64,000 bases of DNA, from the NCBI GenBank assembly GCA_964472875.1, contig CAYYMD010000005.1, positions 7,670-71,669 on the forward strand. The letters run 5' to 3'. The position numbers were made by a program, and so were the translations under genes. This DNA comes from an uncultured Planctomycetaceae bacterium. Lineage in GTDB: Bacteria; Planctomycetota; Phycisphaerae; SM23-33. The notes below the pieces were generated by a model. That model worked only from the letters and a program-made list of their open reading frames with translations. It searched no databases and had not been told where the DNA came from. Within the stretch, counting starts at the first letter, position 1; each line of letters starts with the position of its first letter. Positions 5,770 through 31,524 of this stretch are shown here, in pieces.

Positions 5770-5845
5770 CGAATAAATCCTTTCCTTTCTCTGTTGGTAA
5801 AACGTCTGTAACAATTCCGGCTGTTGGTCTACATTTTGGGGGTGA

Positions 5846-7880: not shown

Positions 7881-8158
7881 CAGCGATTCATCCCCAGCCG
7901 TACTTTTGCGACAGGGGACACCGTAACTTTTTCTGGAACAAAACGTTGTATTTTTCTTTTTACCGATGCTGTTGTTCCTCCGGATTTCGTGTCCCCATAC
8001 GGCACAGACGCCGCATGGCCGGCCAAATCGTCCGTTTTTGAAGTTAAACTCGATAATGTTATTATGGTTTTCCAATTTTATTGACAATTATTATTCACTA
8101 TTAATTTTCTGTTGCGATATGAAGTGTGAAGAAAATTGCCGAAATCCAAAATTTCTGG

Positions 8159-9004: not shown

Positions 9005-9066
9005 GGCAGCACTGAATTATAAAATAATATGGAATAGTCAACTTATACTGATTTAAGGATGAACAA

Positions 9067-10227: not shown

Positions 10228-10281
10228 TTTGTAGTTCACGCGGCGCGGCGCAAAGACAAAGAGCGGAGAAGCGTTAATGTA

Positions 10282-10950
10282 ATGATACAGATGAGCCGTC
10301 GGATGTATATTCTTACAGGCATAGCCGTAGTGCTGGCCTGTGTTGCGGTGTGGACTCTGCTGACGGGAGAGGATATAAATGTAGATGACCCGATCCTGGC
10401 CAAAGTTTTGCGCCTGGAGCAGGAAGGCGATGTGGAAGCGCTTGCCCAAGCAGCCGGGGACGATAACACCCATCTTGCCGCCGAGGCCACAAAGGCCCTG
10501 GGGCGCATGGAAGTTGAAACCATACCACACGTGAAGGAATCCCTGAAAGACCGTCGCCAAAGGGTGCGCGAGGCGGCGGCGGGCGCGATTGGAAACATGG
10601 GCAGGCCCGCCGTGAGAAAATATCCCGGGGTAGTCGCCGACCTCGCACGGGTGGCGATGAATGACGACTCGGTGAATGTCAGGGCTTCGGCTGTGACTGC
10701 CCTCGGCAAGATGCGGGCCCACGAACACATGGAGGCGCTGCTGTCGGCCATGGACGATCCGGACGCTGCGGTCCGCGGGCGGGCGGCAAAGGCCGTTTCC
10801 AGGATTATCGGACGCGAATACGGCTTCAGGGCGAGCGCGCCGCGGGACCGGCGCCGCCAAGTTATTAAAAAGATCAGGGGCATCTGGCCGGAAATCGAAC
10901 CCTATATCCGCGAGTATTATTCCGAGGAATCACATCGCTGGAATGATTAA
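10282..10950 (+). CDS. Membrane-anchored HEAT-repeat protein
   Basis: 222 aa with an N-terminal TM segment (ILTGIAVVLACVAVWTLL). Repeated HEAT-like units follow (VREAAAGAIGNMG; VNVRASAVTALGKM; DPDAAVRGRAAKAVSRI). Confidence 0.7.
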   Translation: MIQMSRRMYILTGIAVVLACVAVWTLLTGEDINVDDPILAKVLRLEQEGDVEALAQAAGDDNTHLAAEATKALGRMEVETIPHVKESLKDRRQRVREAAAGAIGNMGRPAVRKYPGVVADLARVAMNDDSVNVRASAVTALGKMRAHEHMEALLSAMDDPDAAVRGRAAKAVSRIIGREYGFRASAPRDRRRQVIKKIRGIWPEIEPYIREYYSEESHRWND

Positions 10951-11377
10951 CTTAACCCTGTCGCAATGGGTCATAGCAACCGGAGATTTTACCTGCTGCG
11001 CTTCGGTCTGCGCCTGACTGGGGTGATAACTACTATCCGGGGCCCTGTTGCATCTCAGAGTTGAGACCGCGATTTGCCGCTGTACTTGCGGCGGAGGCGC
11101 TTAAGTATATCCAGGGCGGCCATTTGGATAACCGACGACCTGCCCGCCGACTGGTTTTCAAAAAGGTTGGCAGGCGGGTTCGTTCCATATGCTTAGATTT
11201 TTTTTGGCGCGGTAAGTCAAGTCGCGAGGCAGTTGCGCCAGCTGCACAATGGTGCTGCAATGGCCGATGGTTATAGCCGTGACCAAGTCACGAAAACGGT
11301 CCTATGCAGGTCCGACGAAGTGCTTGCATATGTGGTGAAAAAATTTTTTAACTTCCGCCGGAATCTCGCCGATGGTG

Positions 11378-11397
11378 GATTCCGGCGCGCCGGGATT
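11378..11397. repeat. Imperfect copy of the dispersed palindromic element (GATTCCGGCGCGCCGGGATT)
   Basis: Read directly from the sequence. The perfect 12-nt core CCGGCGCGCCGG is flanked by ATT/AAT-type arms. It is related to the elements at 18325-18344 and 21367-21382. Confidence 0.6.
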
Positions 11398-11515
11398 CCT
11401 TCAATAAGTCTTTCTGCAAAAATGCCATATCAGCAGTTGCAGCCGCGTTTATTTTGTGCTAATCACCATCGATATTTCCTAAGTGGGGAAGTTTGGAGAT
11501 ATGGAGAGTAAATTA

Positions 11516-12580
11516 ATGAATCACAAAGAACGCGTGCATACAGCTATACGTCACGAAATACCTGACATTACGCCCAAAGGCGATTTGGCAATCGAGGAAA
11601 AGCTTATTCGCAGCATTATCGGTCGGGTCCATTACGGGCGGATGAGCGCTAACGAGCGACTGCTTGCGACCTGGAACCGCCTGGGCGCCGACCTGGTCAA
11701 CATACATGAGTTCCCGATGGAACGGGTCGGGCGGACTGATTCGGGAAGTCCTATATTCCGCTCTGTTCTGGGCGACGAACATGTCATGGCGCCGGGCGCC
11801 TGCCGACTGCACCGGCCTGCAATGTCCGACATCGCGGAGGCCGAGCGATATGAAACCCCGGATGCCTCAACATGCAAAAGCGACTCTCTGGACTGGTTCG
11901 TCGCCAACAGCGATCTGTTTGTCTTCGCCCAGATCATGGGCCCGGTAAGCGCTCTGGACTGGATGCTGGGCACGGAGGATTTCCTCGTATATTGCATGAC
12001 CGAAACGAATTCCGTCCGGGACCTGATGGAGAAGGTAGCCAACTACGAAATCACTCGGGCTAAAATTTTTCTCGACCACGGCGCCGATGCGATTATGATT
12101 ACTGACGACATCGCATACAACGGCGGATTATTCCTGCCGCCGAGGATTATGGAAGAATTGGTTTGGGATCTGTACGTTCACATGTTGAGCGAGATAAAGA
12201 ACTGTCACAAAGCGCCGGTTTTTTTGCACACCGATGGCGATATCCGCGAGGTGCTTGGGAACATAGTCAAATGTGGATTTGACGGTCTGCATTCGCTGCA
12301 ACCTAGCGCAGGCATGGACATAGTGCAGGTCAAGCGCGACTTTGGCAATCGGCTTTGCCTGATGGGCAATATGGACCTGAATCACCTTATGCCTTATGGT
12401 GCGCCGGAAGAGGTAAGCAGGCAGGCAAAGTGGTTGTGCGAAACTATTGGCGGCAACGGCGGTTTCATTCTCGCAACGTGTAATGTGCTGACCGGTGCAA
12501 TCCCACTTGAAAACGTTTACGCCATGTATGGGGTTTCACCGCCGGACGGCAGTGAAACAGCCACCAGGAAAAATACATGA
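11516..12580 (+). CDS. Uroporphyrinogen decarboxylase (URO-D) family protein, MtaA/CmuA-like
   Basis: The track ORF starts at a GTG at 11483. The ATG at 11516 has the best RBS (GGAGAG, 7 nt upstream). The URO-D-fold pattern is DADAIMITDDIAYNGGLFLPPRIMEEL...FLHTDGDIREVL...GFDGLHSLQP...GNMD. The ATGA stop/start overlaps the downstream symporter. Confidence 0.7.
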   Translation: MNHKERVHTAIRHEIPDITPKGDLAIEEKLIRSIIGRVHYGRMSANERLLATWNRLGADLVNIHEFPMERVGRTDSGSPIFRSVLGDEHVMAPGACRLHRPAMSDIAEAERYETPDASTCKSDSLDWFVANSDLFVFAQIMGPVSALDWMLGTEDFLVYCMTETNSVRDLMEKVANYEITRAKIFLDHGADAIMITDDIAYNGGLFLPPRIMEELVWDLYVHMLSEIKNCHKAPVFLHTDGDIREVLGNIVKCGFDGLHSLQPSAGMDIVQVKRDFGNRLCLMGNMDLNHLMPYGAPEEVSRQAKWLCETIGGNGGFILATCNVLTGAIPLENVYAMYGVSPPDGSETATRKNT

Positions 12581-14409
12581 CCATAATCGATACAATTGTA
12601 ATAGTTTTGTATTTAATAGGCATCGTTGCGGTGGGAGTGTATTTCTACCGCCTTTCGTCGAGGGGGACGCGGGCCTACTTCTTAGGGGGCAATAAGCTGC
12701 CGTGGTGGGCACTTGCAGCATCGGGCTCCGCGTCAAACTATGATGTGACAGGAACAATGTTCCTGGTCTCGCTGTTTTACGTAGTCGGGCTACGTAGTTT
12801 CTGGATGCTGTGGAGTTGGCAGTTCATGTCTGCGGCATTCCTGATGTCCTATATGGCTATATGGATCCGACGAACGAGGGTTATGACGGCCGTGGAACTT
12901 CTTCACATCCGCTTCGGAGCGGGCCCCGGTGGACGCATGGCTCGCACAGCCGGGGCCGTGTTAATGGTTACATTCCTGGTTTTCTCGATAGGTTATGCAT
13001 TCGTAGGTATAAGCAAGTTCCTGCCCCACGTGATCCCGGAATGGATACCCGGCAACGGGCGAATATGGGCGGTCGTGATAATGCTGTTGACTACCGTGTA
13101 CGTAACAGTGGGCGGCCTATCCGGCGTTGTGGTAACCGACCTCATACAGGCCGTGCTGATGAGCGTGGGCGGGATTCTTGTAGGGGTAATTGTTTTCATG
13201 AAACTCGACCTCTCAACCGTAGCCACCCTGCACGAACGTTTCGATACCAATATGCTTCCGCAGGCACAACTGTCGATGCCCCCCGGATATGAAACATGGA
13301 ATGACTTTGGCATCCTGTGCCTGTTCTGGTTTGCCGCTGGACTGTTGCTGAACATGAGCGGAGCCGGCGGACACTACCAGGAGCAAAGGTTTCTCGCTAC
13401 AAGGTCGGCGGGCGACTCCGCTCGCGCAGGTTGTGCATGGGGCATTTTTCTGATTCCACGCTGGGCCATGGTCGCCGGCTTCTGCTACATCGCTGCGACG
13501 GGAATGGCCGGCGCAGACGACCCGGAGCAGATTCTGCCGGTTGTGTTAATGGAAATGATTCCCGCCGGTCTTCGCGGCCTGCTTCTGGCGGCTTTTCTTG
13601 CGGCATTCATGTCCACATTCAGCTCTTACGTCAACGCTGCGGCTTCAATGGTTATCCGTGACCTGCTGCATCCTTTCATGCCGCGGATGAAAGACAGAAG
13701 CCAGGTTCTGGCTGGTTATATTGTCAGCGTAATGGCGGTTGCCTTAGGCATAATAATCGGCTTTAACGCCGAATCGATTAAAAATATATGGGTCTGGATG
13801 ATTATCGGGCTTATAGGCGGTTCTTTGATACCGAACGTGCTGCGCTGGCACTGGCACAGATTGAACGGATGGGGTTACTCTGCAGGTATATTCCTGGGCC
13901 TGATAACTGCGATGGCGGTGCGGTGCGGCCTGTTCGGCAAGGACCCTGCCGAGTATGTTTACGCACCGGTGGTCTGGATTATGACCTTGATCGGATGTGT
14001 GGCGGGATCACTTCTGACCCGCCCGGCGCCCACAAAGGTGCTGGAACGCTTCTACCGGACAGTCAGGCCGTTCGGATTCTGGGGGCCGGTCAAGAGGAAG
14101 GTCAATGCCACACCTCCTATCGGCGGCGTGGATTCTTCGCCCCTGCGCATAGCAGGTAATGTAGTGGTGGCTACAGTCAGTCTTATCAGCGCTTTCCTGG
14201 CCACATTTTTTATCGTGGGACATTATCTGCTGGCATCGATAATAACATTAATCACGGCTCTAACCGGTAGTGTTATACTCTATTTAACCTGGTACCGCCC
14301 GCTGGTTGCCGGTGAAAAGACCATAGATGATCCGCAGAAGCGGGAAAGCGAGAACACCGTCCGCTATTTTAAGATTAATCCTGAAGACTCTGAAGGCCGT
14401 AATCAATGA
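12577..14409 (+). CDS. Sodium:solute symporter (SSF) family transporter
   Basis: 610 aa and polytopic (about 13-14 TM). The N-terminal YFLGGNKLPWWALAASGSASNYDVTGTMF pattern is typical of SSF. It overlaps both neighbours by ATGA. Confidence 0.85.
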   Translation: MTIIDTIVIVLYLIGIVAVGVYFYRLSSRGTRAYFLGGNKLPWWALAASGSASNYDVTGTMFLVSLFYVVGLRSFWMLWSWQFMSAAFLMSYMAIWIRRTRVMTAVELLHIRFGAGPGGRMARTAGAVLMVTFLVFSIGYAFVGISKFLPHVIPEWIPGNGRIWAVVIMLLTTVYVTVGGLSGVVVTDLIQAVLMSVGGILVGVIVFMKLDLSTVATLHERFDTNMLPQAQLSMPPGYETWNDFGILCLFWFAAGLLLNMSGAGGHYQEQRFLATRSAGDSARAGCAWGIFLIPRWAMVAGFCYIAATGMAGADDPEQILPVVLMEMIPAGLRGLLLAAFLAAFMSTFSSYVNAAASMVIRDLLHPFMPRMKDRSQVLAGYIVSVMAVALGIIIGFNAESIKNIWVWMIIGLIGGSLIPNVLRWHWHRLNGWGYSAGIFLGLITAMAVRCGLFGKDPAEYVYAPVVWIMTLIGCVAGSLLTRPAPTKVLERFYRTVRPFGFWGPVKRKVNATPPIGGVDSSPLRIAGNVVVATVSLISAFLATFFIVGHYLLASIITLITALTGSVILYLTWYRPLVAGEKTIDDPQKRESENTVRYFKINPEDSEGRNQ

Positions 14410-17400
14410 AACAAACAAAAGGCATAGAGAAAATAATCGACAAGTGGCGCGGACTAATCAAGAGTAAAAAGCGGGCTATTATCAGTTTTGAAGAAATTAT
14501 CCAAGGCCGCATAGAATCACTGAAACCCTGGATATATCCCGACAGCGAACCACTGGAGGGGTGGACTTACCGGCAGTTTAAATATGACCGCCACGGCAAT
14601 CGCACCTTTGTGGATGACGAATGGCGGCCGATCCGTCCCGGCGATACCTGGGGCGGCGAGGACATGAGCGCCTATTTCCGCTGCAAGGCCTCTATTCCAG
14701 AACGGTTCAGGGGCAGAACCGTAGTGCTCAAATTATATTTTAGCGGAGACGGCCTGCTCAGAGTCAACGGCGACGCATTCCACGGTCTAGACCCGTTTCG
14801 CGACACTATATTTATGACCGAAAACGCCCAAGGTGACGAGTGCTTCGACTTGGAAGCGGAATCGTACATTATGTGGCACTTCGGCGAGGGCACCGTTAAA
14901 CATTTTGAAATCTCACAGTGGGCCGTTTTTGACCGAGAGCTTCACGAGGCGTATTGGGATCTAAAGACCGTTTTCAACCTAATGATGTCGGAGAAGACAA
15001 ACCCTGATGTCGTTAATTTTATCCGCAAGCACCTGGACGACTCCACCCGTCACATCGATCAGCGATGCGAAGACGGGGCGACAGTGCGTGAAATGGCGGT
15101 CCGGGCCCGGAAAATTATAAGAGAGAAAGTATATTCCTGCGACAGTTTCCGCCACGAGGGACTCTTGCACCTTACCGGCAATTCTCATCTTGATCTTGTT
15201 TACCTTTGGACACACGCTGAGTTTATCCGCAAGATAGGGCGCTCCCACGCCACGGCCCTGCGGCTGATGGAGCGATACCCCGAATACATATTTACCCAAA
15301 GTCAGCCCCACATGTATGATCAAATGAAGCGCCACTACCCGGAACTTTTCGAACAGGTTAAGCGGCGAATCGCCGAGGGTCGCTGGGAGGCCATAGGAGC
15401 GTTCTGGGTCGAGCCGGATTGCAACCTGATATCCGGGGAGTCAATGGTTCGCCAGATTATGCATGGTGTTGCCTATTACCAGAAAGAGTTCGGAGTCACG
15501 CCGCGGACCGCGTGGATTCCGGATGTCTTCGGCAACGCCTGGACCATGCCACAAATACTCGTCAAGTGCGGCCTGGAGTTCTTCGTAACGCACAAGATGA
15601 GCATCTGGAACGACACCAATGCGTGGACAAAGAACGTGTTCTGGTGGGAGGGCCCCGACGGATCACGTATATTCTCGCACGTGCCCACCACACATTTTAT
15701 CGGAACGGCAGAACCGGACCACTTGCAGGAGCACTGGGAAAGATTCTCCGATAAAGTGGAAATCGGCGAGTCCCTTTACTGCTATGGGTGGGGCGACGGC
15801 GGTGGCGGTCCGGATGCGGAAATGCTGGAATATTGCTGTCGTTACAGGTCGCTGCCGGGGCTCGTTCCATGCCGCAACTCCACGGTTGAGGATGCTCTGG
15901 AAAGCATGCGCGAGCGAGCCGAAAATGCCGATATACCTGTTATCAACGACGAACTCTACCTCGAAGAACATCGTGGCGTTAACACCACCAAGGGGCGACT
16001 CAAGAAATTGAACCGCTACTGCGAGCATCTGTACCGCAAGGCCGAATTGTTCAACTGTTTCTGCCGCGTTGCGTATCCGGCTGAAAGACTCCGTCAGGGC
16101 TGGCGGGAAGTTCTCGTCAACCAATTCCACGATTCACTGCCGGGGACACATGACTCGCGTTCTTACCTAGACATTCTGGAGTCCTATGACAGGGCGGTCG
16201 CCATTGGTCGGCAAGAGCTTCAAAATGCCCTGGAAGACATCATATCGCAAATCGACACCGACGGTCCGGGCCGGGCAGCCGTGATCTTCAATTCACTGCC
16301 GGCACCGCGGGACACCCGCGTCTCGATCCCGTGCGAACTTCCGGCCGCAACCGTGCTGGACCGCCGAGGAAATGAGATCCCCTGCCAGTTCAGCACAGAT
16401 TACCAAACGCACCAGCGAACACTTGAGTTTGAAGTAACCGATTTGCCTCCTGTTGGTTATGAGGTTTACCATATATTGGACAAACAGGAGGGTACGCACC
16501 GACCACGTCTCGAGTGTTACTATGGAGACAATGGTGAGATAATCCTCAATAACGAGCATATTCGAGCGGTAATCGATCAGGAGGGATGTATTGCCTCTCT
16601 GACGGACAAAAGCACCGGACGCGAGTTCATAGATACCCGCCGACGGGCAAACGTTTTCAAGCTTTACGAGGACATCCCCGGTACGTTCGATGCCTGGGAC
16701 ATAGAGGAACACTACACCAGCCACGAGTTCGACATGGGCACTGCCAAGGTGGCCATTCTTGAACAGGGTCCAGTAAAGGCGGTGGTCGAGGTCAACCGTT
16801 GTTTCCGTAATTCGCAACTTCGGCAGCAAATAGTACTGGGTGCGCAGGCCCGTCGCTTGGACTTTTGTACGTGGGTGGACTGGAAAGAACAGCGCAAACT
16901 GCTGAAGGTGCGTTTCCATACAAATATTCGCAGCCGAACGGCTACATATGACATCCCCTACGGAAACATTGAACGCCCTACTACAAGGAACAATTCTTAC
17001 GAGGCCGCCAAGTTTGAAGTACCCGGCCACGAGTGGATGGACCTTTCACAGGCCGATAGGGGCCTGAGCCTGCTGACAGATTCTAAATACGGATACGAGG
17101 CGCTCGGCTGTATGATATCGCTGTCGCTACTGAAAGGCCCCTTGTACCCAGACCCAACCTCGGATCAGGAGGAACATTACTTCACGTATTCATTGTATCC
17201 CCACGCAGACGGATGGCGGCGAACGGATACGATAGGGCAGGCCGCCGATTTGAACGACCCTGTGGAAGTTGTTATGTCCGAGCCGCATACGGGGCAAGCT
17301 CCCACCAGACGTTCATTTCTTCGGATGCAGGGTGAAGGCGTTACGCTGGAGGCAGTCAAGCAGGCCGAGAATGCCGATGGTGTAATTGTGCGCGTGGTCG

Positions 17401-17585
17401 AGCGACATGGCGGTGAGAAAACCGTTACACTCGAATTGTATGGAAATTTCGGATCAGTTTGCGAGTGCGACCTTCTTGAACGTGATGGGCAACCTCTGTC
17501 CAAAAATGCGGCCGGAAAAGTGTCGCTGGCTATCCGTCCCTACGAGATAAAGACACTGAGATTCACCAACGGACCTGCCGACTGA
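14406..17585 (+). CDS. Glycoside hydrolase family 38 alpha-mannosidase
   Basis: 1059 aa. The N-terminal catalytic pattern is LTGNSHLDLVYLWT...FTQSQPHMY...WVEPDCNLISGES, with QFHDSLPGT in the central domain. No signal peptide is apparent, so it is likely cytoplasmic. Confidence 0.85.
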   Translation: MKQTKGIEKIIDKWRGLIKSKKRAIISFEEIIQGRIESLKPWIYPDSEPLEGWTYRQFKYDRHGNRTFVDDEWRPIRPGDTWGGEDMSAYFRCKASIPERFRGRTVVLKLYFSGDGLLRVNGDAFHGLDPFRDTIFMTENAQGDECFDLEAESYIMWHFGEGTVKHFEISQWAVFDRELHEAYWDLKTVFNLMMSEKTNPDVVNFIRKHLDDSTRHIDQRCEDGATVREMAVRARKIIREKVYSCDSFRHEGLLHLTGNSHLDLVYLWTHAEFIRKIGRSHATALRLMERYPEYIFTQSQPHMYDQMKRHYPELFEQVKRRIAEGRWEAIGAFWVEPDCNLISGESMVRQIMHGVAYYQKEFGVTPRTAWIPDVFGNAWTMPQILVKCGLEFFVTHKMSIWNDTNAWTKNVFWWEGPDGSRIFSHVPTTHFIGTAEPDHLQEHWERFSDKVEIGESLYCYGWGDGGGGPDAEMLEYCCRYRSLPGLVPCRNSTVEDALESMRERAENADIPVINDELYLEEHRGVNTTKGRLKKLNRYCEHLYRKAELFNCFCRVAYPAERLRQGWREVLVNQFHDSLPGTHDSRSYLDILESYDRAVAIGRQELQNALEDIISQIDTDGPGRAAVIFNSLPAPRDTRVSIPCELPAATVLDRRGNEIPCQFSTDYQTHQRTLEFEVTDLPPVGYEVYHILDKQEGTHRPRLECYYGDNGEIILNNEHIRAVIDQEGCIASLTDKSTGREFIDTRRRANVFKLYEDIPGTFDAWDIEEHYTSHEFDMGTAKVAILEQGPVKAVVEVNRCFRNSQLRQQIVLGAQARRLDFCTWVDWKEQRKLLKVRFHTNIRSRTATYDIPYGNIERPTTRNNSYEAAKFEVPGHEWMDLSQADRGLSLLTDSKYGYEALGCMISLSLLKGPLYPDPTSDQEEHYFTYSLYPHADGWRRTDTIGQAADLNDPVEVVMSEPHTGQAPTRRSFLRMQGEGVTLEAVKQAENADGVIVRVVERHGGEKTVTLELYGNFGSVCECDLLERDGQPLSKNAAGKVSLAIRPYEIKTLRFTNGPAD

Positions 17586-17752
17586 CACCCACGAGACTCC
17601 GCCTTCAATAATAACCATAACCAAAACTAATAAATCTTTTCCGAGCCGATTGCTCTGGCTGTAAATGACTGCCGCAAGGGGAATAAACTGCCATGGTTTA
17701 AAACCACGTAGCATTGCTGCTACGGATTTCGCCCGTCCGCCTGCTCCAAAGT

Positions 17753-18420
17753 GGTTTGGGATTTGGGTATTTGGGATTTGTTTCGCATTTCGATATCAGT
17801 ATTTCGGATTTTCATATTCTCCCATCCGGCCGTGTTTGTAAGCGCCCACTGTCAAGGGGGGGATGTTTTTTTCAATATGTTGCGTTATTATCCCCGCATT
17901 CACATGCGACAGCGGGGGCTTACTAAAATTACAAAAAACGCGTGCGGCCCTGCGGCCGAATTACGAATGACGAAATTCGAATGTCGAATCAATGACGAAT
18001 GCACGAATTACGAAACAAATCCGAAATCCCGACGGGACCTTTGGGCCCGGAGGGGCCGTCGGTCCGAAATTCGAAATATGTTTATCCCCTGCATCCCTGC
18101 TGATTTGCGCGCGCAGTTTGTCCGCGGAATCGGCCATAGCGCCCGAAAAAATAAAATTTTTTATGTCTTCTCCCGGCCGTGGGTTACGAATTCCGCATAC
18201 GCCCAACAGGCGCGGTTTGCGCGCGCAAAGGCGTTGTTTCGTCCAAGTATGGAGGGAAAAGTAAAAACTTAAAACTAAAAACTGAAAACTTAAATGCTGC
18301 CCGTCGCCATGGTGAAAAATGACCAATCCCGGCGCGCCGGGATTCCCAATGTCCAATTTCCTTACAAAAAACGCCGCGGGGCGGGCGGATCTGAAATCTC
18401 AAATTTTAAATTTCAAATTC
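17753..18420. repeat. Cluster of degenerate short tandem motifs, palindromes and an inverted 12-mer in a gene-free region
   Basis: Read directly. TTTGGGA/T occurs x3 (17754-17779) and ATTTCG x3 (17785-17808). CGAAT/GAAAT-type units run across 17961-18080. The 12-mer CGAAACAAATCC (18011-18022) is the reverse complement of 17777-17788. TTTGCGCGCGCAAA is a 14-nt palindrome at about 18207-18220. AAAACTNA occurs x4 (18262-18292). GAAATCTCAAATTTTAAATTTCAAATTC lies at 18392-18420. Confidence 0.6.
18325..18344. repeat. Perfect 20-nt palindrome AATCCCGGCGCGCCGGGATT (dispersed element, best copy)
   Basis: Read directly. The sequence is self-complementary over all 20 nt. Confidence 0.75.
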
Positions 18421-18833
18421 TTGTCTGCTGTCTGCCTCGAAAAAGCGCGGCTTTTGAGAGGATCGCGGGTCAGAATTATGATTAACCACTGCAATACATA
18501 CACTTACGAATTTCTGTCAAGGGTAAAAAACGCGCAATATCGCGCAAAAAGGTCTAAAAACCTGCAACAGCCCGGCACAACGCGCAAAAAACCGGCAATT
18601 CCTGAAATAACTTACAAAGACGAGCAATACAGGCCCGAGTTCCAAGTTCCTCGCAAACGTCTTGAACGCACAGCCGGGCGAAAATACTTGCTCCCTGCGC
18701 TGAATTTGTTAATTTTACATTAATCGCAAATGCTCGTATCGGTAACGGGCCCGCCGGTACGAGAATTATTCACGGGGCCTGAATAAATTGGCGATAAAAT
18801 GGTTCGTTTAACCGCCGCCAGGAAAGGTCAATT

Positions 18834-21335
18834 ATGTCAATTATAAACACACTATCCCGTTTTGCTTTGTCACATGTTTTGTTTCTCGGCCTGCTGACCG
18901 TCTCTTTCATGGCCACGGGTCTGCGTGCGGATACGTCGCTGCTGCCGATGGAATCGCCCCAACGGGGATTCGTCAGCACGCGTCCGGCCGAGACGTGGGA
19001 GCAGGGGCTCCTGACGGGCAACGGCACCGTCGGGGCGAACGTCTTCGCCCGCCCGCTGGAGGAGACGATAATATTCACGCACGAGCGCCTGTTCCTGCCG
19101 CAGGGCGACCCGCACATGCCTCCGCCTCAGATGGGCACGCGATTGTACGACATCCGCCGTCTGATAGACCGCGGGCTCTACAGCCAGGCCGCGCAACTGG
19201 CGTCCGACCTGTCCGAACAGGACGGTTTCATGTACCCCGACCCGTTTGTGCCGGCCTTTGATATGAAAATAGACATGACATCGCCGGGGACGTCAGCGAT
19301 CGAGCGCTACCGTCGCGGCGTGAATTTCGAAAACGGCCTGGCCGGTGTGCAGTGGAAGGACGGCAGGGGCGTGTTCGAGCGGCGAATGATGGTTTCCCGG
19401 GCAGACGACCTTGCGGCGATGCAGATACGCGCGTCCAAGGCCGGTTCTATCCACTGCACCCTGGATCTGACGCCCCGCCGGCCCAGCGAGAAAATCGATG
19501 AGAAAAAACGCCGCCAGTCCGTCCGGCGTTTCGAAAATTCAATTAAGGACCTTGAGATTACCGCCGACGGCCGCACGCTGACCTTCCGCAACACCTTCGC
19601 AAACGCCTACCCGGGCAGCGTTCAAGCCGTCGAGGGCGTGGTGCACGTCCGCACGCAGGGCGGAAAGGTCACCACGAAGGACCGGACGATGATCATCGAC
19701 GGGGCGGACGAGGTTACGCTGCTTGTCGACGTGAATGTTATTTACAGGAAGGACCATTCGCGCATCGAGCAGACAAAATCGCGCCTGGCCGGCATAAAGC
19801 ACGATTTCGAGACTCTGCTGGAGCGGCATGCGCGTATCCACGGCGAGATGTTCAACCGGATGCGCCTGGAAATCGGCGGCGAGCATCACGACTGGAGCAC
19901 CGAGAAACTGCTGGCCGCCTCGACGAACGAAAAACTCTCGCGGACGCTGATTGAGAAGGAATTCGACGCCGCCCGCTACAACATAATCTGCAGCACGGGC
20001 GAGCTGCCGCCGGTGCTTCAGGGAATCTGGGCGGGGACATACGTCCCGTCGTGGGCGAGCGACTTTACGCACAACGGCAACGTTCCTTCGGCCATCGCCG
20101 CAATGCTCATGGGCAACACGCCGGAACTGATGCTCGCCTACACCAATTACATGGAATCCATCGTCGGCGACATGCGGGTCAACGCCAGGAACATTTTCGG
20201 CGCCCGCGGCATCGTCCTGCCCTCGCGGAGCAGCGCGCGGGCGTTCAACAACGCACTTGCGCCGAGGTTCGCCGGCGGATTCTGGGTGGCCGGCGCGCCG
20301 TGGGCGGCGCACTTCTTCTACGACTACTACCTCTACACCGGCGACAAAAAGTTCCTCGCCGAACACGCCCTGCCGTTCATGGAGGAGGCGGCCGTGTTCT
20401 TCGAAGATTACCTTTACGAAGGCCCCGACGGAAAATACGTGTTCAATCCCACCCAGTCGCCGGAAAACACACCCTCCAACACGCACTCGCAGGCCACGTT
20501 CAACGCGACGATGTCGGTGGCGGCCGTGAAGCAACTGCTGCGAAACCTCATCGAGGCCTCGCAGACGCTCGGCGTCAACGAGGACAAAATCCCCCAATGG
20601 CGCAACATGCTTGCCAAGATGCCGCCTTACCTCATCGACGAGGAACTCGGCGTGGTGAAGGAATGGCTGACGCCAAAACTCAAGGACAATCTCAACCACC
20701 GCCATTCGTCCCAGCTTTACCCCGTGTATTACACCATGTCGGAGGAAGTGGCCGGCAGCGAAAAACTGCAAAACGCCTTCAAGCGTATCGTCGAGATAAA
20801 ACTCGAGAAGCACTGGAAAGCCAAGCGCTCGGGTTTCATGTCCTTCGGCCTGGTGCAGCTTGGCCAGGCGGCCACGACTCTGGGCGACGGCGATCTGGCC
20901 TACCGCTGCCTGCGGCAACTGGTCAACCGCTACTGGCTGAACAACCTGGCGTCCATGCACAATCACCGCTCGCTGCTGAACATGGACATAAGCGGCGGCA
21001 TGCCGGCCGTCATTATCAAGATGCTGGTCGCCTCGGCACCGGGCAGGGTGCAACTGCTGCCCGCCCTGCCGAAAGAGTGGCCCGCCGGCGCCGTGGAGGG
21101 CGTGTTGTGCCGCGGCCAAATCGAGGTCGAACGGCTCCGGTGGGGCAAGGACGGCATACGCCTGCGGCTGCGCTCGGGCAAAAAGCAGACCGTCACGCTC
21201 GAAGCGCCACAGTGGGCCGACCGGGCCGAGGTGGCCGAAGGCGACGCCACTGTGAAGGCCGCCGACCGCGACAACGCCTGGCGGCTGTCGCTGCCCGCCG
21301 ACCGGCCGGTCGAACTGACTATATCGGCGAAATAA
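18834..21335 (+). CDS. Glycoside hydrolase family 95-like protein (putative alpha-L-fucosidase type)
   Basis: 833 aa with a signal peptide (HVLFLGLLTVSFMATGLRA). The N-terminal GH95 pattern is W.QGLLTGNGTVGANVF...ETIIFTHERLF. The catalytic-domain patterns are DFTHNGNV...AAMLMGN and FNPTQSPENTP. Confidence 0.75.
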   Translation: MSIINTLSRFALSHVLFLGLLTVSFMATGLRADTSLLPMESPQRGFVSTRPAETWEQGLLTGNGTVGANVFARPLEETIIFTHERLFLPQGDPHMPPPQMGTRLYDIRRLIDRGLYSQAAQLASDLSEQDGFMYPDPFVPAFDMKIDMTSPGTSAIERYRRGVNFENGLAGVQWKDGRGVFERRMMVSRADDLAAMQIRASKAGSIHCTLDLTPRRPSEKIDEKKRRQSVRRFENSIKDLEITADGRTLTFRNTFANAYPGSVQAVEGVVHVRTQGGKVTTKDRTMIIDGADEVTLLVDVNVIYRKDHSRIEQTKSRLAGIKHDFETLLERHARIHGEMFNRMRLEIGGEHHDWSTEKLLAASTNEKLSRTLIEKEFDAARYNIICSTGELPPVLQGIWAGTYVPSWASDFTHNGNVPSAIAAMLMGNTPELMLAYTNYMESIVGDMRVNARNIFGARGIVLPSRSSARAFNNALAPRFAGGFWVAGAPWAAHFFYDYYLYTGDKKFLAEHALPFMEEAAVFFEDYLYEGPDGKYVFNPTQSPENTPSNTHSQATFNATMSVAAVKQLLRNLIEASQTLGVNEDKIPQWRNMLAKMPPYLIDEELGVVKEWLTPKLKDNLNHRHSSQLYPVYYTMSEEVAGSEKLQNAFKRIVEIKLEKHWKAKRSGFMSFGLVQLGQAATTLGDGDLAYRCLRQLVNRYWLNNLASMHNHRSLLNMDISGGMPAVIIKMLVASAPGRVQLLPALPKEWPAGAVEGVLCRGQIEVERLRWGKDGIRLRLRSGKKQTVTLEAPQWADRAEVAEGDATVKAADRDNAWRLSLPADRPVELTISAK

Positions 21336-21366
21336 ACGCAAATTCTGTGTCCCCAGCGCGTCGTAG

Positions 21367-21382
21367 TCCCGGTGCGCCGGGA
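21367..21382. repeat. Stem-loop copy of the dispersed palindromic element (TCCCGG-TGCG-CCGGGA)
   Basis: Read directly. It lies 32 nt after the GH95-like stop codon. Confidence 0.55.
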
Positions 21383-21619
21383 TAAACCAGTCTAAGACCA
21401 GGAGAGCCGCAAGCATTCCGGCCGTTCTGGCTGTATGCTTGCTCTACGCCTTTGCGATTTGGGGCAACGCAATTTGACACACTATTAAATTAATCTTAAT
21501 CGAATCTTAACAATCATTACAGAAACTTATTCCAACCTGAATATTTCACACGGCCGGCATGTCGGGAACATGCCGGGAAGGAATCTGAAAGTCTTTGAAT
21601 CAACCAATAAGGAGCACAA

Positions 21620-23059
21620 ATGATGACACAAAATAGATTCCTTGCAGCGGTGCTGGTGTCCGGACTCTTGTGCGGGGTTCTGTCTGCGGCCGAAACTTCC
21701 ATGGAAGAACTTCAGACCACCGTTGAGGCGCTGAAGGCCCGGATAAAGGACCAGGACAGGCGGATCGAGGAACTCGAGTCGCAGCAATCCGAAAACAAAA
21801 AGCAGCAGACGAAATTCCTCCAGATGTACGACAAGTTGCAGCATAGCGCCGCCGAACACGACAGCGATTTTCGCGTTTACTGGGACGACGGCCTGCGGAT
21901 GAAAAACGGCAACGGTTTTAAGATAAAGTTCGGCGGCCGGCTGATGTACGACATGGGCTGGGTCGACGGCGACGACGTGGAAGACCATTCCGACTTGGCC
22001 GGCGGAGATAACGACCTCGAGGACGCCGCCGACGTCCGCCGCGCGCGGTTGTATTTCCAGGGGGACATCTACGAGGATCTCCGGTTCAAGCTGCAGTTCG
22101 ACTTCGCCGGCGGCGACGCGGCGCTCAAGGACGCCTACCTGCGGTTCAAAGACGTCCCGTACGTAGGCAACATAACCATGGGCCACTTCAAGGAGCCGTT
22201 CAGTCTGGAAGAACTGACTTCCTCCAAGTACATAACGTTCATGGAGCGCGGCCTGCCCAACGCCATAGCACCCGGCCGGAACTTCGGCGTGATGGCCCAC
22301 GATTCATTTCTGGAAGACAACATGACGTACGCTATCGGCATCTTTCGCGACGTGGACGGCTACGGCGAAGACAACCCCGACGACAACGACGAGGACGGCG
22401 GATACAACATGACCGCCCGCGTCACGGCCGTGCCGTGGTACGCCGACGAGGGGAAGAAACTGCTTCACCTTGGCGGCTCTTATTCGCTGCGACACCCGCA
22501 GGAAGAGAGCATAAGGTTCCGCGCCAGGCCCGAGGCGCATTTTCTCTCGGAAAGGTACGTGGACGTAACGACCCCGGCCGAGTGGGAAAACAGGTTCGGC
22601 GCCGAGACTGCCATGGTTTACGGGCCCCTTTCGGCCCAGGCGGAATACATGGCCGTGGTCCCTGACGCCGGCAACGAGGCCGAAGTGGAGCCCACGCTGC
22701 AGGGCGCCTATGCATACGTGAGTTACTTCCTCACCGGCGAGCACCGCAACTACAGCCGCTCTTCGGGGACCTTCAAGCGGGTGACGCCGAAGAAGAATTT
22801 CCGCGAGGACGGCGGCCTGGGCGCATGGGAAGTGGGCGCCCGCTGGTCGTGGCTGGATTTCACGGACAATCCGCTGGAAGACACCGACGACGGCGCAAGG
22901 GAACTCAACAACGTCACGCTGGGCGTCAACTGGTATCTGAACCCGAACGTGCGACTGATGTGGAACTGGGTGCATCCCGTCGTCGAGGATGAGGGCCCGG
23001 TCGACGACTGGAAGGAAGAGAACGACATCTTCATGATGCGCATGCAGGTGGACTTCTGA
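21620..23059 (+). CDS. Phosphate-selective porin O/P (OprO/OprP-like) family outer-membrane porin
   Basis: 479 aa with a signal peptide and an N-terminal coiled coil (LQTTVEALKARIKDQDRRIEELE). The porin_O_P-like body reads FGGRLMYDMGW...RRARLYFQGDIYEDLRFKLQFDFAG...GHFKEPFSLEELTSS. The terminus is MRMQVDF. Confidence 0.7.
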   Translation: MMTQNRFLAAVLVSGLLCGVLSAAETSMEELQTTVEALKARIKDQDRRIEELESQQSENKKQQTKFLQMYDKLQHSAAEHDSDFRVYWDDGLRMKNGNGFKIKFGGRLMYDMGWVDGDDVEDHSDLAGGDNDLEDAADVRRARLYFQGDIYEDLRFKLQFDFAGGDAALKDAYLRFKDVPYVGNITMGHFKEPFSLEELTSSKYITFMERGLPNAIAPGRNFGVMAHDSFLEDNMTYAIGIFRDVDGYGEDNPDDNDEDGGYNMTARVTAVPWYADEGKKLLHLGGSYSLRHPQEESIRFRARPEAHFLSERYVDVTTPAEWENRFGAETAMVYGPLSAQAEYMAVVPDAGNEAEVEPTLQGAYAYVSYFLTGEHRNYSRSSGTFKRVTPKKNFREDGGLGAWEVGARWSWLDFTDNPLEDTDDGARELNNVTLGVNWYLNPNVRLMWNWVHPVVEDEGPVDDWKEENDIFMMRMQVDF

Positions 23060-23076
23060 ATCCGCCTGCGGGTTTT
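23059..23076. terminator. Weak bidirectional hairpin between the convergent porin and miaB genes
   Basis: AATCCG-CCTG-CGGGTT followed by TTT. The stem is short. Confidence 0.3.
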
Positions 23077-23100
23077 GCAGTTATATTACGGTCGGCGGGC

Positions 23101-24519
23101 TTACATGGCGCGCCGGGAAGAAGACGAATCTCCGCTGAGCCGGCCGAAGAGCGTAAGCGGTGAGGCGTCGGTGATGTTGACGCGGACGTACCGGCCGGCC
23201 AGCTCCGCCGGGCCGTCGAAGATGACGATGTGGTCCCAGCGCGTGCGGCCGGTCAGTTGCACCTGCCCCGCCGGTGGCTCGCCCGTCTGCTTGCCGCTTC
23301 GCGGCGATGGGCCTTCGGTCAGGACTTCGACCTCCCGGCCGACGTATTGGCGATGATGCGTCAGGCCGACTTTCTGCTGGACGGCCAGCAGTTCGTTGTT
23401 GCGGCGCTTTTTTACTGCAAGTGGAACATCGTCTTTGAGCCGCCCGTCGGCGGTTGTCCCCGGCCGTGGGGAGTATTTGAAAATGAATGAATTTTTGTAG
23501 CCGGCTGTTCGGATAAGGTCCGCGGATGCGTCGTGGTCGGCATCCGTCTCGCCGGGAAAGCCGACTATGAAGTCGCCGGCCAGCACGACGCCCGGGACGA
23601 TTTCCCTCGCGCGGGCGACGAAGTCGTCGTACTGTGCCCGCGTGTAGCCGCGCTTCATCCGCTTCAGCACCGCGTCCGAGCCGCTCTGGGCCGGGCAGTG
23701 AATGTACTCGCACAGGTTTGGCAGGTCACGCATGGCCGCCAGGATGTCGTCGCCGAAGCCGGCCGGGTGGGATGTTACGAACCGCAGCCGCCGCAGGTTG
23801 TCAACGTCGGCGACCCTGGCGAGCAAATCGGCGAAAGACACCGTCCGGCCGCCGGAGCGCCAACGGTAGGCGTTGACGGTCTGGCCCAGCAGCGTTATCT
23901 CGCTTCGCCCGGCATCCACGAGACGGCGGACCTCCTCGACGACGTGGTCGGGGCTGCGGCTGTGCTGCGGGCCCCGGACATACGGCACGACGCAGTACGT
24001 GCAGAACCTGTCGCAGCCGCGCATCACGCGGACGAATGCCTGCACTCCGGCGGTGGTGTGATTGACATCGCGGCCGAGGTCCAGCGCGTCAAGGCCTGCG
24101 GCCGCCTGCTGGTCGGGCGGTTCATTCCGCGCCGGGTCGAGCGCGACTACACGCCGACCGGCGGCGGCCTCGGCCAGAAGCTCGGTCAGGCGGTGAATCT
24201 GACCCGGCCCGCATATTACGTCCACCTGCGGGTACCGGCGGGCCAGTTCCGCTCCACGCCGCTGGGCCATGCAGCCGATGATGCCGACCACGATATTTTT
24301 GCCGGATTGCTTCCGCTTGCCCTCGGCGCCGATGCGCGAAAGGACCTTGTCCTCGGCGTGGCGGCGGACCGAGCAGGTGTTATACAGGACCGCCCGCGCC
24401 TGTTTGCGGTCGGCGACCATCTCGTGGCCGGCTCGGACCAGCGAATCGGTGATTAGTTCGCTGTCCAGGCGGTTCATCTGGCAGCCCATTGTCTCAAGAT
24501 AAATCTTCATACTTTTCAT
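23101..24519 (-). CDS. miaB: tRNA-2-methylthio-N6-dimethylallyladenosine synthase (radical-SAM methylthiotransferase)
   Basis: The N-terminal MKIYLETMGCQMNRLDSE belongs to the UPF0004 domain. The radical-SAM cluster motif is CDRFCTYCVVPYVRG, and a C-terminal TRAM domain is present. An alternative start lies at 24510. Confidence 0.9.
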   Translation of the reverse strand: MKSMKIYLETMGCQMNRLDSELITDSLVRAGHEMVADRKQARAVLYNTCSVRRHAEDKVLSRIGAEGKRKQSGKNIVVGIIGCMAQRRGAELARRYPQVDVICGPGQIHRLTELLAEAAAGRRVVALDPARNEPPDQQAAAGLDALDLGRDVNHTTAGVQAFVRVMRGCDRFCTYCVVPYVRGPQHSRSPDHVVEEVRRLVDAGRSEITLLGQTVNAYRWRSGGRTVSFADLLARVADVDNLRRLRFVTSHPAGFGDDILAAMRDLPNLCEYIHCPAQSGSDAVLKRMKRGYTRAQYDDFVARAREIVPGVVLAGDFIVGFPGETDADHDASADLIRTAGYKNSFIFKYSPRPGTTADGRLKDDVPLAVKKRRNNELLAVQQKVGLTHHRQYVGREVEVLTEGPSPRSGKQTGEPPAGQVQLTGRTRWDHIVIFDGPAELAGRYVRVNITDASPLTLFGRLSGDSSSSRRAM

Positions 24520-24598
24520 TCTACGAAATTTTGAACGTGAAGTTTACCGCCGGCGATGCGCTAAAATGATATAACAAGAAGATAGAAAGGAGACAGAC

Positions 24599-24940
24599 AT
24601 GGAAAAAGAACTTTGCGATTTAAAATGCAAGGCGTGCCGTGGCGACGTCGAACCGTTCGGCCCGGAGCAAATAAGCGAGTATCTCCCGCAGCTCGATGAC
24701 GCATGGAAGGTGCAGGACAACAAGCGCCTGGTGCGAGAGTTCAAACTGAAGGATTTCGCCGCGGCGCTGGAACTAGTCAACCGCATCGGCGAACTGGCCG
24801 AGCAACAACAGCACCACCCCGACATATTCCTTACCTGGGGCAAGGTGAAAGTGACGCTGATGACGCATAAGATAGGCGGCCTGCACGAAAGCGACTTTAT
24901 AATGGCGGCCAAGATCGACAAACTGTGGCAAGAGGGTTAA
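24599..24940 (+). CDS. phhB: 4a-hydroxytetrahydrobiopterin (pterin-4a-carbinolamine) dehydratase
   Basis: 113 aa. The signature is EQQQHHPDIFLTWGKVKVTLMTHKIGGLHESDFIMAAKID. Confidence 0.85.
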   Translation: MEKELCDLKCKACRGDVEPFGPEQISEYLPQLDDAWKVQDNKRLVREFKLKDFAAALELVNRIGELAEQQQHHPDIFLTWGKVKVTLMTHKIGGLHESDFIMAAKIDKLWQEG

Positions 24941-24972
24941 ACACAGTTTCGCAGGCACTAAAAATCTAAACG

Positions 24973-26127
24973 TCAGCCGGTGATTGTTTCCAATATCCGC
25001 AGGTAGCGTTGGTATCGGCCTGAAGGGATTTGTCCCTGCTTTACGGCATCCTTGACGGCGCAGCCGGGCTCGTGCGTGTGCGTGCAGTCATTGAACTTGC
25101 AATCTTGGGCCACATCCTCAAATTCCGGGAAGTACCACGGCAACTGCTCCGGCGACAGGTCGATGGCCAGTTCGCGTATGCCGGGCGTGTCGATCAGGAT
25201 GCCGCCTTCGCCCGCATCTTCGGCCGGCGGCAGGTCGTATACAGACGCCGCGGCCGTGGTGTGCCGCCCGCGATTGTCCTTCATGCGTATCGAGCGGGTT
25301 TTCGCCCCCGCCCCTGGAACAAGGGCGTTGACCAGTTCGCTCTTCCCCACGCCGGAGGCCCCCGCCAGGACACTTCGCCTGCCAGCCAGTTCGCGACGCA
25401 GTTCATCCACGCCGCTTCCGGTTATCGCCGATGTCTGGTATATCGGCAACTCCACGGCGCGGAACTCGGCCAGGAGTTTCTCGTCGGGGGCGGCAAGGTC
25501 CGTCTTGTTGACCACCAGCAGCGGCGCCATTTCGCCCCGCTCGGCGATTATCAGAAAACGGTCCACCAGCCCCGGTCGGAACCGCGGTCGGCGAGTGGAC
25601 GAGACAACCAGCAGGGTGTCCATGTTCGCGGCCACAACCTTCTGCACCGGTTGCGGGCCGTATTCGTCGCGATGCCGGCCGGCCTTCGGCGCCGGACGGG
25701 CCAGCACGGTCCGCCTGGGCTTTCGGGCTATTATCATGCCGTCGGCGCGGTCCTTGTCTCCTTCGGCTGCCTGTTTGGCGTCTTCGGCCACGGCCGCGGT
25801 CACCTCGTCGCCTACCGCGATGGGGCTCAGGTGCTCGCTACCGGCCGGCGGGCGAAACGCCTTTGCCACCCCGCACAGCAGTTCGCCTTCGCCGTCGGCG
25901 GGTCGAACCATCGCCCCACCGGGGAACAGGCCGGTTATCATGCCCTCGACGCACGGCAGCTCGTCGAGATTGCTGCCGGGCTCCGCCAGCCGGGACGGCG
26001 GCAGTTTGACGGCGCGGTGCGAGAGACTCTCCCGCGATGTCGCTCGGGCGTCGCCGGTCTTGCCGTCGAGATATTTTTGGCGCCAGTCTTTTATGCGCCG
26101 CTGCGATTTGCCCTTGTGTTTGGCCAT
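24973..26127 (-). CDS. rsgA: Ribosome small-subunit-dependent GTPase A
   Basis: It has the circularly permuted GTPase motifs (VVNKTDL, GASGVGKSELVNAL, DTPGIRE). The C-terminal zinc knuckle is CKFNDCTHTHEPGCAV. Confidence 0.9.
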   Translation of the reverse strand: MAKHKGKSQRRIKDWRQKYLDGKTGDARATSRESLSHRAVKLPPSRLAEPGSNLDELPCVEGMITGLFPGGAMVRPADGEGELLCGVAKAFRPPAGSEHLSPIAVGDEVTAAVAEDAKQAAEGDKDRADGMIIARKPRRTVLARPAPKAGRHRDEYGPQPVQKVVAANMDTLLVVSSTRRPRFRPGLVDRFLIIAERGEMAPLLVVNKTDLAAPDEKLLAEFRAVELPIYQTSAITGSGVDELRRELAGRRSVLAGASGVGKSELVNALVPGAGAKTRSIRMKDNRGRHTTAAASVYDLPPAEDAGEGGILIDTPGIRELAIDLSPEQLPWYFPEFEDVAQDCKFNDCTHTHEPGCAVKDAVKQGQIPSGRYQRYLRILETITG

Positions 26128-26248
26128 TGTGGTGTATTTTCTCCTTATATCGTGTAAAAATCAAATCTCACCGCTGCGGGGCAATGCACTTGACAACCGC
26201 TGCAATTAAGGTAAATTAAAGATTTCGCTCCGTAGTCGCGGGCGTAGC

Positions 26249-26321
26249 GGGCAGGTAGCTCAGTCGGTAGAGCAACGGATTGAAAATCCGTGTGTCGGCG
26301 GTTCGAATCCGCCCCTGCCCA
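26249..26321 (+). tRNA. tRNA-Phe (anticodon GAA)
   Basis: Cloverleaf folded by hand. The acceptor is GGGCAGG/CCTGCCC plus discriminator A. The D arm is GCTC-AGTCGGTA-GAGC. The anticodon stem is ACGGA/TCCGT with loop TTGAAAA. The T arm is GGCGG-TTCGAAT-CCGCC. Confidence 0.95.
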
Positions 26322-26410
26322 TTTTTTATCACTTTGCAATCTTTGGGCGCCCTTGTGGCGGGCAGGTTCAACTGTTAGCATTTTTCAGGAATCACTGGTA
26401 AGGAACACCC

Positions 26411-28887: not shown

Positions 28888-28931
28888 GATATAGAGTTTC
28901 CGATTTCGATATAAATATTCGGAGATTGGAT

Positions 28932-29063
28932 TGAAAAACGTAAACGATCATACTGGCCGCCAAATTCGCCTGACTGATGAAAAACTGTCATATTCTCGAA
29001 CATCCCGAGATGAATGAGATGCTTGAGAGCACCAAAACACCTTCATTGTCACAGCTTATTTAA
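28932..29063 (+). pseudogene. Frameshifted remnant of a small conserved gene (RLTDEKLS / HILEHPEM type)
   Basis: One frame reads LKNVNDHTGRQIRLTDEKLSYSRTSRDE*. A +1 shifted frame continues HILEHPEMNEMLESTKTPSLSQLI*. Together these resemble small 'HI.EHPEM'-motif proteins split by a frameshift. This is recognition by memory only. Confidence 0.3.
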
Positions 29064-29091
29064 GGGATTCGCTCAAACGAGGCGGGAAAAC

Positions 29092-31063: not shown

Positions 31064-31142
31064 AATTAATATTGAGAGATGAGGTTCGTATTCGCGAAAT
31101 CCCATCGGGATAAGTTCGCGGCTGAAATAATCAGGAGTAAAA

Positions 31143-31508: not shown

Positions 31509-31524
31509 TGATTACTATAAAGTC

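Follow-up and report, generated by a model that had tools for sequence, protein, structure and literature searches.

The 1,248-nt gene-free gap between a GH38 and a GH95 glycoside hydrolase gene in a 64-kb stretch of planctomycete DNA (contig CAYYMD010000005.1; hereafter the window) is, we suggest with moderate confidence, a non-coding mosaic accreted from small repeated modules, the planctomycete counterpart of the bacterial interspersed mosaic elements (BIMEs) of E. coli and the neisserial intergenic mosaic elements (NIMEs) of Neisseria. The gap extends from the GH38 stop codon to the GH95 start codon (17586-18833), is the largest between long open reading frames (ORFs) in the window and, taken as one spacer to which no strand is assigned, has a GC content of 0.476 compared with 0.569 for the window. 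An original prediction, made from the sequence alone, had described it as gene-free and unusually repetitive. Indeed, we found no coding-type ORF in it, but arrays, palindromes and an inverted repeat, and every motif that had been listed was present, with coordinates off by no more than 3 nt. At the level of sequence, our comparisons establish three of its pieces, namely an A-tract-rich core, the centre of a foldback element and an arm segment at 18312-18410, as dispersed or rearranging DNA modules and not a gene, because these pieces recur in another order, orientation and gene context, at non-syntenic places.

Pieces of the gap recur in a different arrangement on two other contigs

Using the 134-codon frame at 18319-18720 as a query, we searched 1.84 billion representative proteins and also a collection of 5.8 billion sequences. 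Two strong matches (E ~1e-21) were the sole matches in both collections: P0121 (172 aa; on an NCBI contig of 58,740 nt) and P0122 (193 aa; on an NCBI contig of 37,953 nt), both unnamed and without a Pfam domain. Identity was limited to about 51–61 residues in the middle of the ORFs, corresponding to a conserved core of ~175 nt (18436-18612), of which one frame is 83–84% identical to parts of P0121 and P0122 in local tblastn alignments (E ~1e-26) and which folds with a z-score of about 0. The ends of the three ORFs (134, 172 and 193 aa) are unrelated and share neither a start nor a stop codon. In P0121 and P0122, the flanks of the core are translated heptamer arrays of the kinds seen in the window, reading SEIRNPQSEI, KNLKTKNLKLKLKK and RGAGGSEISN.

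When P0121 and P0122 were aligned to the window by tblastn, P0122 was seen to unite three window segments in a single ORF. The first, 18312-18410, is read in another frame in the window (E 0.003). The second is the foldback centre, matched from 17907 to 17821 on the opposite strand of the window and across a stop codon (62% identity, E 7e-8), and the third is the core (E 6e-26). In addition, an AAAACTT-type array follows the core in P0121, whereas it precedes the core in the window. The homology holds across frames and strands, and the arrangement of the modules differs; it is therefore homology at the DNA level. Of the 120 best GH95 homologues and the GH38 loci, not one sits on a contig with the length of the P0121 or the P0122 contig; the other two copies therefore lie outside the gene context of the gap.

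We also considered whether the frame at 18319-18723, or a core of 45–81 residues within it, is a decayed or small real protein gene, with a basic product that P0121 and P0122 would share, an explanation that we regard as exceedingly improbable. No stop codon interrupts the frame in any of the three sequences, whose local identity is 83–92%, and only 0.16% of shuffles gave an open frame of the full 134 codons over the core. However, the open frames of P0121 and P0122 can be understood as an ascertainment effect, with protein databases taking in only those copies that had been called as ORFs. Over the core, GC at codon positions 1/2/3 of the frame is 0.48/0.42/0.50, a GC3 of 0.50 compared with 0.61 and 0.81 in the neighbouring genes; its codon log-odds are 0.0, there is no coding-type GC pattern by codon position, and no Pfam family matches it. 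Moreover, the termini of the ORFs are unrelated low-complexity translations of heptamer arrays, lacking a common start or stop codon, the P0122 ORF goes on to match window DNA that is read in another frame and DNA that lies on the opposite strand and contains a stop codon, and the aligned residues include radical replacements (P>L, P>S, F>N, E>G and S>R). Based on the changes of frame and strand, the GC content by codon position and these substitutions, P0121 and P0122 appear to be spurious ORFs, called in public annotations of metagenome-assembled genomes (MAGs) across non-coding repeats.

The remainder of the gap gave the same picture. None of three gap ORFs had a Pfam match, and the codon-usage log-odds of gap ORFs were at most 0, where 41 genes average 0.22. 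When 1,543 ORFs, taken from the window and from 57 related loci, were compared with the gap by tblastn, nothing significant came back. The original prediction had named a degraded gene recoverable by homology as the finding that would overturn it; the matches obtained were only the two unnamed ORFs, which switch between frames and strands of the window, and this argues against a gene.

Within the core, four tracts of five or six A residues (18525-18591) are spaced by 21, 10 and 30 nt, in helical phase, from which we infer that the core may contain intrinsically bent DNA. A XerCD dif site in the core was considered and rejected, since by-eye comparison gave just 8/11 agreement in one arm.

A foldback element with heptamer arms

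One segment of the gap is a foldback of ~270 bp, which we call element A (about 17763-18034). Its arms are inverted arrays of degenerate heptamers, and a 27-nt inverted repeat (left copy 17766-17792, right copy 18004-18030) pairs at 23/27 positions (85%) and brackets 211 nt; its score of 34 compares with 16.6±2.5 in shuffles (maximum 24). Within this repeat, CGAAACAAATCC at 18011-18022 has its exact reverse complement at 17774-17785. This is the inverted 12-mer of the original prediction, which had the pair right and its left member, given as 17777-17788, 3 nt off. The left arm (17755-17811) consists of degenerate heptamers, TTTGGGA three times and then TTTCG-type units. The centre (17812-17956) is a nested imperfect palindrome, of which 17821-17907 on the minus strand matches P0122 residues 47-75. 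The right arm (17957-18027), overlapped by the right repeat copy, is a CGAAT/CGAAAT array to which Tandem Repeats Finder (TRF) assigns a period of 7 and 8.6 copies.

Against shuffles, the segment 17745-18085 folded with z-scores of −4.4 (plus strand) and −4.8 (minus strand); such equal folding of both strands is the mark of an inverted repeat at the DNA level and not of a strand-specific RNA. Four other segments of the gap (the GH38-proximal segment, 18095-18345, the core and the GH95 leader) folded no better than shuffles (z +0.6 to −0.8). The claim that the gap was too structured for a simple promoter region thus holds for one module and fails for the other four segments.

As in miniature inverted-repeat transposable elements (MITEs), element A has terminal inverted repeats at the ends of a non-coding stretch of less than ~600 bp, and it shows no coding signal. 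It occurs once in the window, and one diverged copy of its centre lies inside P0122. At its right edge, a GC-rich imperfect palindrome of 35 nt (CCCGACGG...CCGTCGG, 18028-18062) is flanked by a direct repeat of TCCGAAAT (18020-18027 and 18063-18070) and resembles a small hairpin that was inserted in the heptamer array; the predicted pairing of CCGACGG (18029) with CCGTCGG (18056-18062) is contained in it.

Two further similarities touch element A. The sequence GTTTCCGATTTCGATATAAATATTCGGA just 3' of the tsaD stop codon (28896-28923) resembles its left arm at 17780-17808 in 24/29 positions, a weak match (E 0.9 within the window). A search of metagenomes with a degenerate DNA pattern of the centre returned a single match, L058 (JGI contig Ga0209131_1007254), beside an IS110 transposase. 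We treated this match as chance: the similarity ends at 26 nt, and its score was 40 compared with 29.7±4.9 and a maximum of 46 in shuffles. L058 is of separate interest. Its IS110-family transposase gene lies at 4798-5814 on the minus strand, and ~460 nt upstream, on the same strand, is a sub-threshold Rfam match to Acido-Lenti-1 (6276-6345; 30.9 bits against a gathering score of 37, E 5e-5), raising the question of whether this orphan motif is part of the non-coding end of an IS110-type element.

Heptamer arrays and palindromes in the rest of the gap

All the period-7 arrays that TRF detected in the window, four in number and AT-rich, lie in the gap (17755-17780, 17957-18014, 18264-18294 and 18389-18419); heptamer arrays of this kind were also not found in the related Planctomycetota loci L001-L007. 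TTTGGG[AT] occurs at 17755, 17762 and 17770, and ATTTCG at 17726, 17787 and 17801; all six copies expected from the original prediction exist, with just two of the three ATTTCG inside the span 17754-17808 to which it had assigned them. The CGAAT/GAAAT-type run it had placed at 17961-18080 corresponds to six CGAAT within 17957-18004 and four CGAAAT (17971, 18022, 18065 and 18072). Likewise, its fourfold motif is AAAACTNA, repeated four times over 18264-18292 within an AAAACTN heptamer array (18256-18294). The same type of array, translated as the second of the three peptides given above, is present in P0121, but downstream of its core.

The last array, of AAATYTC type (18386-18419), matches P0122 residues 13-39 together with 18312-18385 (E 0.003). 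It carries GAAATCTCAAATTT at 18393 and, as had been noted, resembles sequence just 3' of the tRNA-Leu gene (flank 32310-32336): 18396-18419 agrees with 32313-32336 in 22/24 positions (E 0.002 within the window). Immediately 3' of tRNA-Leu(GAG), TRF reports a period-14 AT-rich array (32299-32336) with a perfect 16-nt palindrome, ATCTCAAATTTGAGAT; this array is probably the tRNA-Leu terminator and related to the array at 18386-18419.

The palindromes predicted for this part of the gap were recovered as well. A 14-nt palindrome, TTTGCGCGCGCAAA, lies at 18216-18229 and has a near copy, TTTGCGCGCGCA, at 18104, so that a pair of boxes of the form TTTGCGCGCGCA(AA) stands at 18104-18115 and 18216-18229, 100 nt apart. 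A perfect 20-nt palindrome, AATCCCGGCGCGCCGGGATT, occupies 18325-18344; its central 12 nt are missing from the P0122 counterpart. Within it lies TCCCGGCGCGCCGGGA (18327), of which copies with a single mismatch occur at 11380, upstream of the operon that begins with a URO-D-like gene and ends with GH38, and at 21367, 32 nt past the GH95 stop codon. All three are intergenic, and the near copies of the palindrome (11380-11395 and 21367-21382) always lie between transcription units. Two 21-nt direct copies of ATYCCGGCGCGCCGGGATTCC that differ by one base (11379-11399 and 18326-18346) bracket this operon, and a third variant lies 3' of GH95; they could be REP-like terminators (REP, repeated extragenic palindrome) or relics of recombination sites.

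Perfect palindromes of at least 14 nt number two in the gap compared with 0.13 expected (p 0.006), and six in the whole window. Other counts were unremarkable. The total number of palindromes of at least 10 nt in the gap was at the chance level, as were 12–16-mer matches of the gap to coding regions and to the rest of the window. A repeated module of an arm plus a GC box, sought by comparing the reverse complement of 17700-17830 with 18290-18430, was not significant (17 versus 14.8±2.2) and was discarded. The gap was also examined as a replication origin and rejected, as it contains no TTATCCACA-like DnaA box with up to one mismatch and no minimum of the cumulative GC skew.

A long spacer of the ordinary promoter/terminator kind, with repeats produced by local replication slippage and coincidental resemblances elsewhere, would be expected to give such chance-level results. 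Of the five folded segments, four also show nothing remarkable, and the absence of synteny in relatives means that nothing argues for conservation of the locus. Nevertheless, we consider this explanation very unlikely and already largely refuted by the P0121 and P0122 matches, which are not chance (E 1e-21 against 1.84 billion proteins, and E 7e-8 for the second module); the inverted repeat and the long palindromes also exceed shuffles.

Candidate transcription signals

The only sigma-70-like match on the GH95 strand in 17400-19000 is a candidate promoter at 18454-18482 on the plus strand (TTGAGA-17-TATGAT, 10/12 consensus positions). Its putative -10 hexamer lies in the invariant part of the core, while the -35 hexamer is not conserved in P0121 and P0122. 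A canonical TTGACA-16-TAAATT is found upstream of tRNA-Phe, indicating that the sigma-70 consensus applies in the source organism. About 110–140 nt past the GH38 stop codon, two adjacent hairpins, CATGGTTTAAAACCACG and CGTAGCATTGCTGCTACG (17692-17724), are terminator-like on the minus strand only and possibly mark the end of the GH38 operon. Finally, an inverted repeat CTCGTATCGG-N11-CCGGTACGAG (18732-18763), 70–100 nt 5' of the GH95 ATG, is a candidate operator or leader hairpin.

These features bear on the idea that the gap is regulatory DNA for GH95, in which arrays and palindromes would bind a regulator or nucleoid protein, or element A would be an inverton that sets GH95 expression. The gap lies directly upstream of GH95 at the start of a new transcription unit, the two copies of the 27-nt inverted repeat enclose 211 nt, at the P0122 locus the centre of element A is in the opposite orientation relative to the core, and both the phased A-tracts and the operator-like repeat would fit such a role. 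However, the promoter scan revealed no sigma-70-like promoter inside element A, the arms match at only 85%, and no recombinase or local regulator gene was found in the window. Moreover, the centre in P0122 is not just flipped but also at a different position, and the same modules are present on contigs without GH95 and GH38 homologues. We therefore hold a regulatory or inverton function to be unlikely.

All terminator-like sites of hairpin plus T-run in 17400-19000 fall on the minus strand (7/7, and none on the strand of the flanking genes), compared with 2.2±1.4 expected for both strands. This bias, the good conservation of the core and a conserved TTGACA on the minus strand (18522-18517) with phased T-tracts upstream could point to a small-RNA locus, most plausibly on that strand, such as an RNA of ~120 nt running from near 18487 to a GC hairpin and T6 at 18385-18362. 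We judge such a locus decidedly improbable. The plus strand of 17400-19000 is markedly A-rich, with an AT skew of up to +0.36, and this accounts for the excess of T-runs on the minus strand. There is no TAnnnT -10 hexamer 16–18 nt past the minus-strand TTGACA, where the promoter scan was likewise empty, and the z-scores are −0.2 and +0.6 for the core and −1.8 for the candidate RNA. In addition, no Rfam family supported it even at E≤10; only tRNA-Phe and tRNA-Leu pass the gathering threshold in the window, and the best E values within 17400-19000 were 2.2–7.2. The suggestion in the original prediction of a structured non-coding RNA locus was thus not upheld, the fold being strand-symmetric and the conserved core unstructured.

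Genomic setting

The window is chromosomal DNA of an uncultured Phycisphaerae/Sedimentisphaerales-type planctomycete. On the 5' side, GH38 (Pfam Glyco_hydro_38N/C) ends at 17585 as the last member of an overlapping three-gene unit comprising the URO-D-like gene (11483-12580), an SSF transporter gene (12577-14409) and GH38 itself (14406-17585). On the 3' side, GH95 (Glyco_hydro_95_cat; 18834-21335) is the first gene of a new transcription unit, with the gap directly 5' of it, and is followed by a porin O/P gene (Pfam). The remaining genes are housekeeping genes and glycosidases. The closest non-identical relatives of the GH95 protein are at most 70% identical and labelled Phycisphaerae, Sedimentisphaerales or Planctomycetota, and the best GH38 relatives (69%) come from Sedimentisphaerales and Planctomycetota MAGs; among these nearest relatives (~70% identity), the synteny of the locus is not kept.

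GC3 is 0.56–0.67 for the genes at 7272-17585, which include a sigma factor, a methyltransferase, a pseudopilin-like gene, a HEAT protein and the URO-D/SSF/GH38 unit, and 0.70–0.81 at 18834-33339, where GH95, the porin, MiaB, RsgA, TsaD, DnaX and RecR are encoded. The gap therefore sits exactly at a step in codon composition. The next-longest apparently gene-free stretches in the window, at 62040-62835 (796 nt) and 10951-11482 (532 nt), are both without heptamer arrays.

Discussion

In the mosaic that we favor, four kinds of module would be combined: the MITE-like foldback of ~270 bp (about 17763-18034); REP-type palindromes that are short and GC-rich (18028-18062, 18104/18216 and 18325-18344), of which the one at 18325-18344 would belong to a small family at operon borders; the AT-rich heptamer arrays; and the A-tract-rich core of ~175 nt (18436-18612). 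The modules may have spread or rearranged with the help of a transposase working in trans, or through recombination or slippage at their simple-repeat arms, and their persistence may be largely selfish or neutral. As a by-product, the hairpins and T-runs might insulate the GH38 operon from GH95, while the core could provide the putative GH95 promoter (18454-18482) along with bent upstream or leader DNA. The original prediction had offered three readings, of which a graveyard of MITE/REP-like elements is now best supported: three pieces recur in shuffled form on two contigs, and near copies of the palindrome lie at 11380 and 21367. For the reading as a protein-binding array that controls the glycosidases, no positive evidence was obtained.

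Several observations weigh against this explanation. A target-site duplication was not found at element A, where TGGGATTTG flanks the left side and GACGGGACC the right side without any direct repeat in common, and a Pfam survey of the window genes revealed no transposase, integrase, recombinase or RAYT/IS200-type gene (RAYT, REP-associated tyrosine transposase). The core and element A each occur only once in 64 kb. Similar sequence was not found in JGI metagenome contigs or viral contigs (both searched with the core peptides) or in plasmids or phages (blastn); the module family would therefore be rare or confined to a poorly sampled lineage. The P0121 and P0122 contigs could belong to the same MAG. 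The fully open frame over the core is seldom matched in shuffles, as described above, and the terminator and promoter roles, putative as they are, rest on consensus matches only.

A more far-reaching explanation, which we put forward as doubtful, is that the arms, the foldback centre and the A-tract core belong together as mobile, modular non-coding cassettes, a lineage-specific family in Phycisphaerae not described before, with a portable promoter/bent-DNA module or an invertible segment, that rewires adjacent glycoside hydrolase genes. Repeats, promoters and regulatory DNA are little known in Planctomycetota, especially in uncultured, glycan-degrading Sedimentisphaerales. If the family is dispersed, it would offer a marker for genome plasticity around carbohydrate-active enzyme genes and a candidate source of portable promoters and terminators. 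The modules would also account for a pair of spurious "hypothetical proteins" annotated in public MAGs. If the gap is merely local debris, it is ordinary, and flags the GH38 operon and GH95 as separate transcription units at a codon-composition step.

Comparison with known systems

NIMEs consist of RS units between dRS3 repeats and occur with Correia elements in Neisseria. Like BIMEs and NIMEs, the gap is a gene-free intergenic stretch made up of several unrelated short repeat families, with palindromic units at operon borders and modules in varying order and orientation. Unlike them, its modules lack sequence similarity to those elements and number one to three copies each in 64 kb, with no RAYT or other transposase in the window; furthermore, the linking units are AT-rich heptamer arrays and not 20-bp dRS3 repeats as in NIMEs. 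In a survey of REP families, the Neisseria CGTC-1/dRS3 units are described as grouped within large intergenic regions of mosaic type among other repeat families, and a REP is recognized by a GTAG or CGTC tag that stays unpaired at one of its ends and by a RAYT transposase associated with it (PMC3733652). The three copies of TCCCGGCGCGCCGGGA in 64 kb, all intergenic, are suggestive of REPs, which are imperfect palindromes of 20–40 bp that recur many times outside genes, while not being of high copy number. The recurring palindrome carries neither GTAG nor CGTC, and GTAG is contained only in the single hairpin CGTAGCA..TGCTACG (17707-17724), inside the stem.

Compared with MITEs and other foldbacks such as Correia, ERIC and RUP, element A is similarly short (~270 bp) and non-coding, has a 27-nt inverted repeat and can form a long imperfect hairpin on either strand; as in MITEs, its centre is found elsewhere in another orientation. 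It differs from MITEs in lacking a target-site duplication, in having a repeat embedded in degenerate heptamers instead of a sharp terminus, and in that no parent insertion sequence was identified. An inverted repeat around ~200 bp located 5' of a glycan-related gene, and the opposite orientation at a related locus, are likewise reminiscent of invertons (fimS, and the polysaccharide and polysaccharide utilization locus switches of Bacteroides). In contrast to these, element A has no promoter inside it, no invertase gene nearby and imperfect arms, and the related copy is at a different position.

In cyanobacteria, short tandemly repeated repetitive (STRR) sequences are reportedly heptanucleotides such as CCCCAAT (Mazel et al. 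1990, J Bacteriol). They have been used for fingerprinting (PMC5088731). The gap belongs to another phylum, and its arrays are short (3–9 units) and degenerate. As in STRR sequences, however, it holds tandem heptanucleotide arrays in intergenic DNA, including inverted pairs, and its unit TCCCAAA (the complement of TTTGGGA) is similar to that of STRR1. In sequence the gap matches no named family; it departs from MITEs also in the missing target duplication, and from tagged REPs in the missing tag and RAYT. Taken together, these comparisons suggest that the gap would be a new, lineage-specific case of mosaic intergenic repeats, closest in kind to BIME/REP clusters, the mosaic intergenic regions of Neisseria, MITEs and the STRR heptamers.

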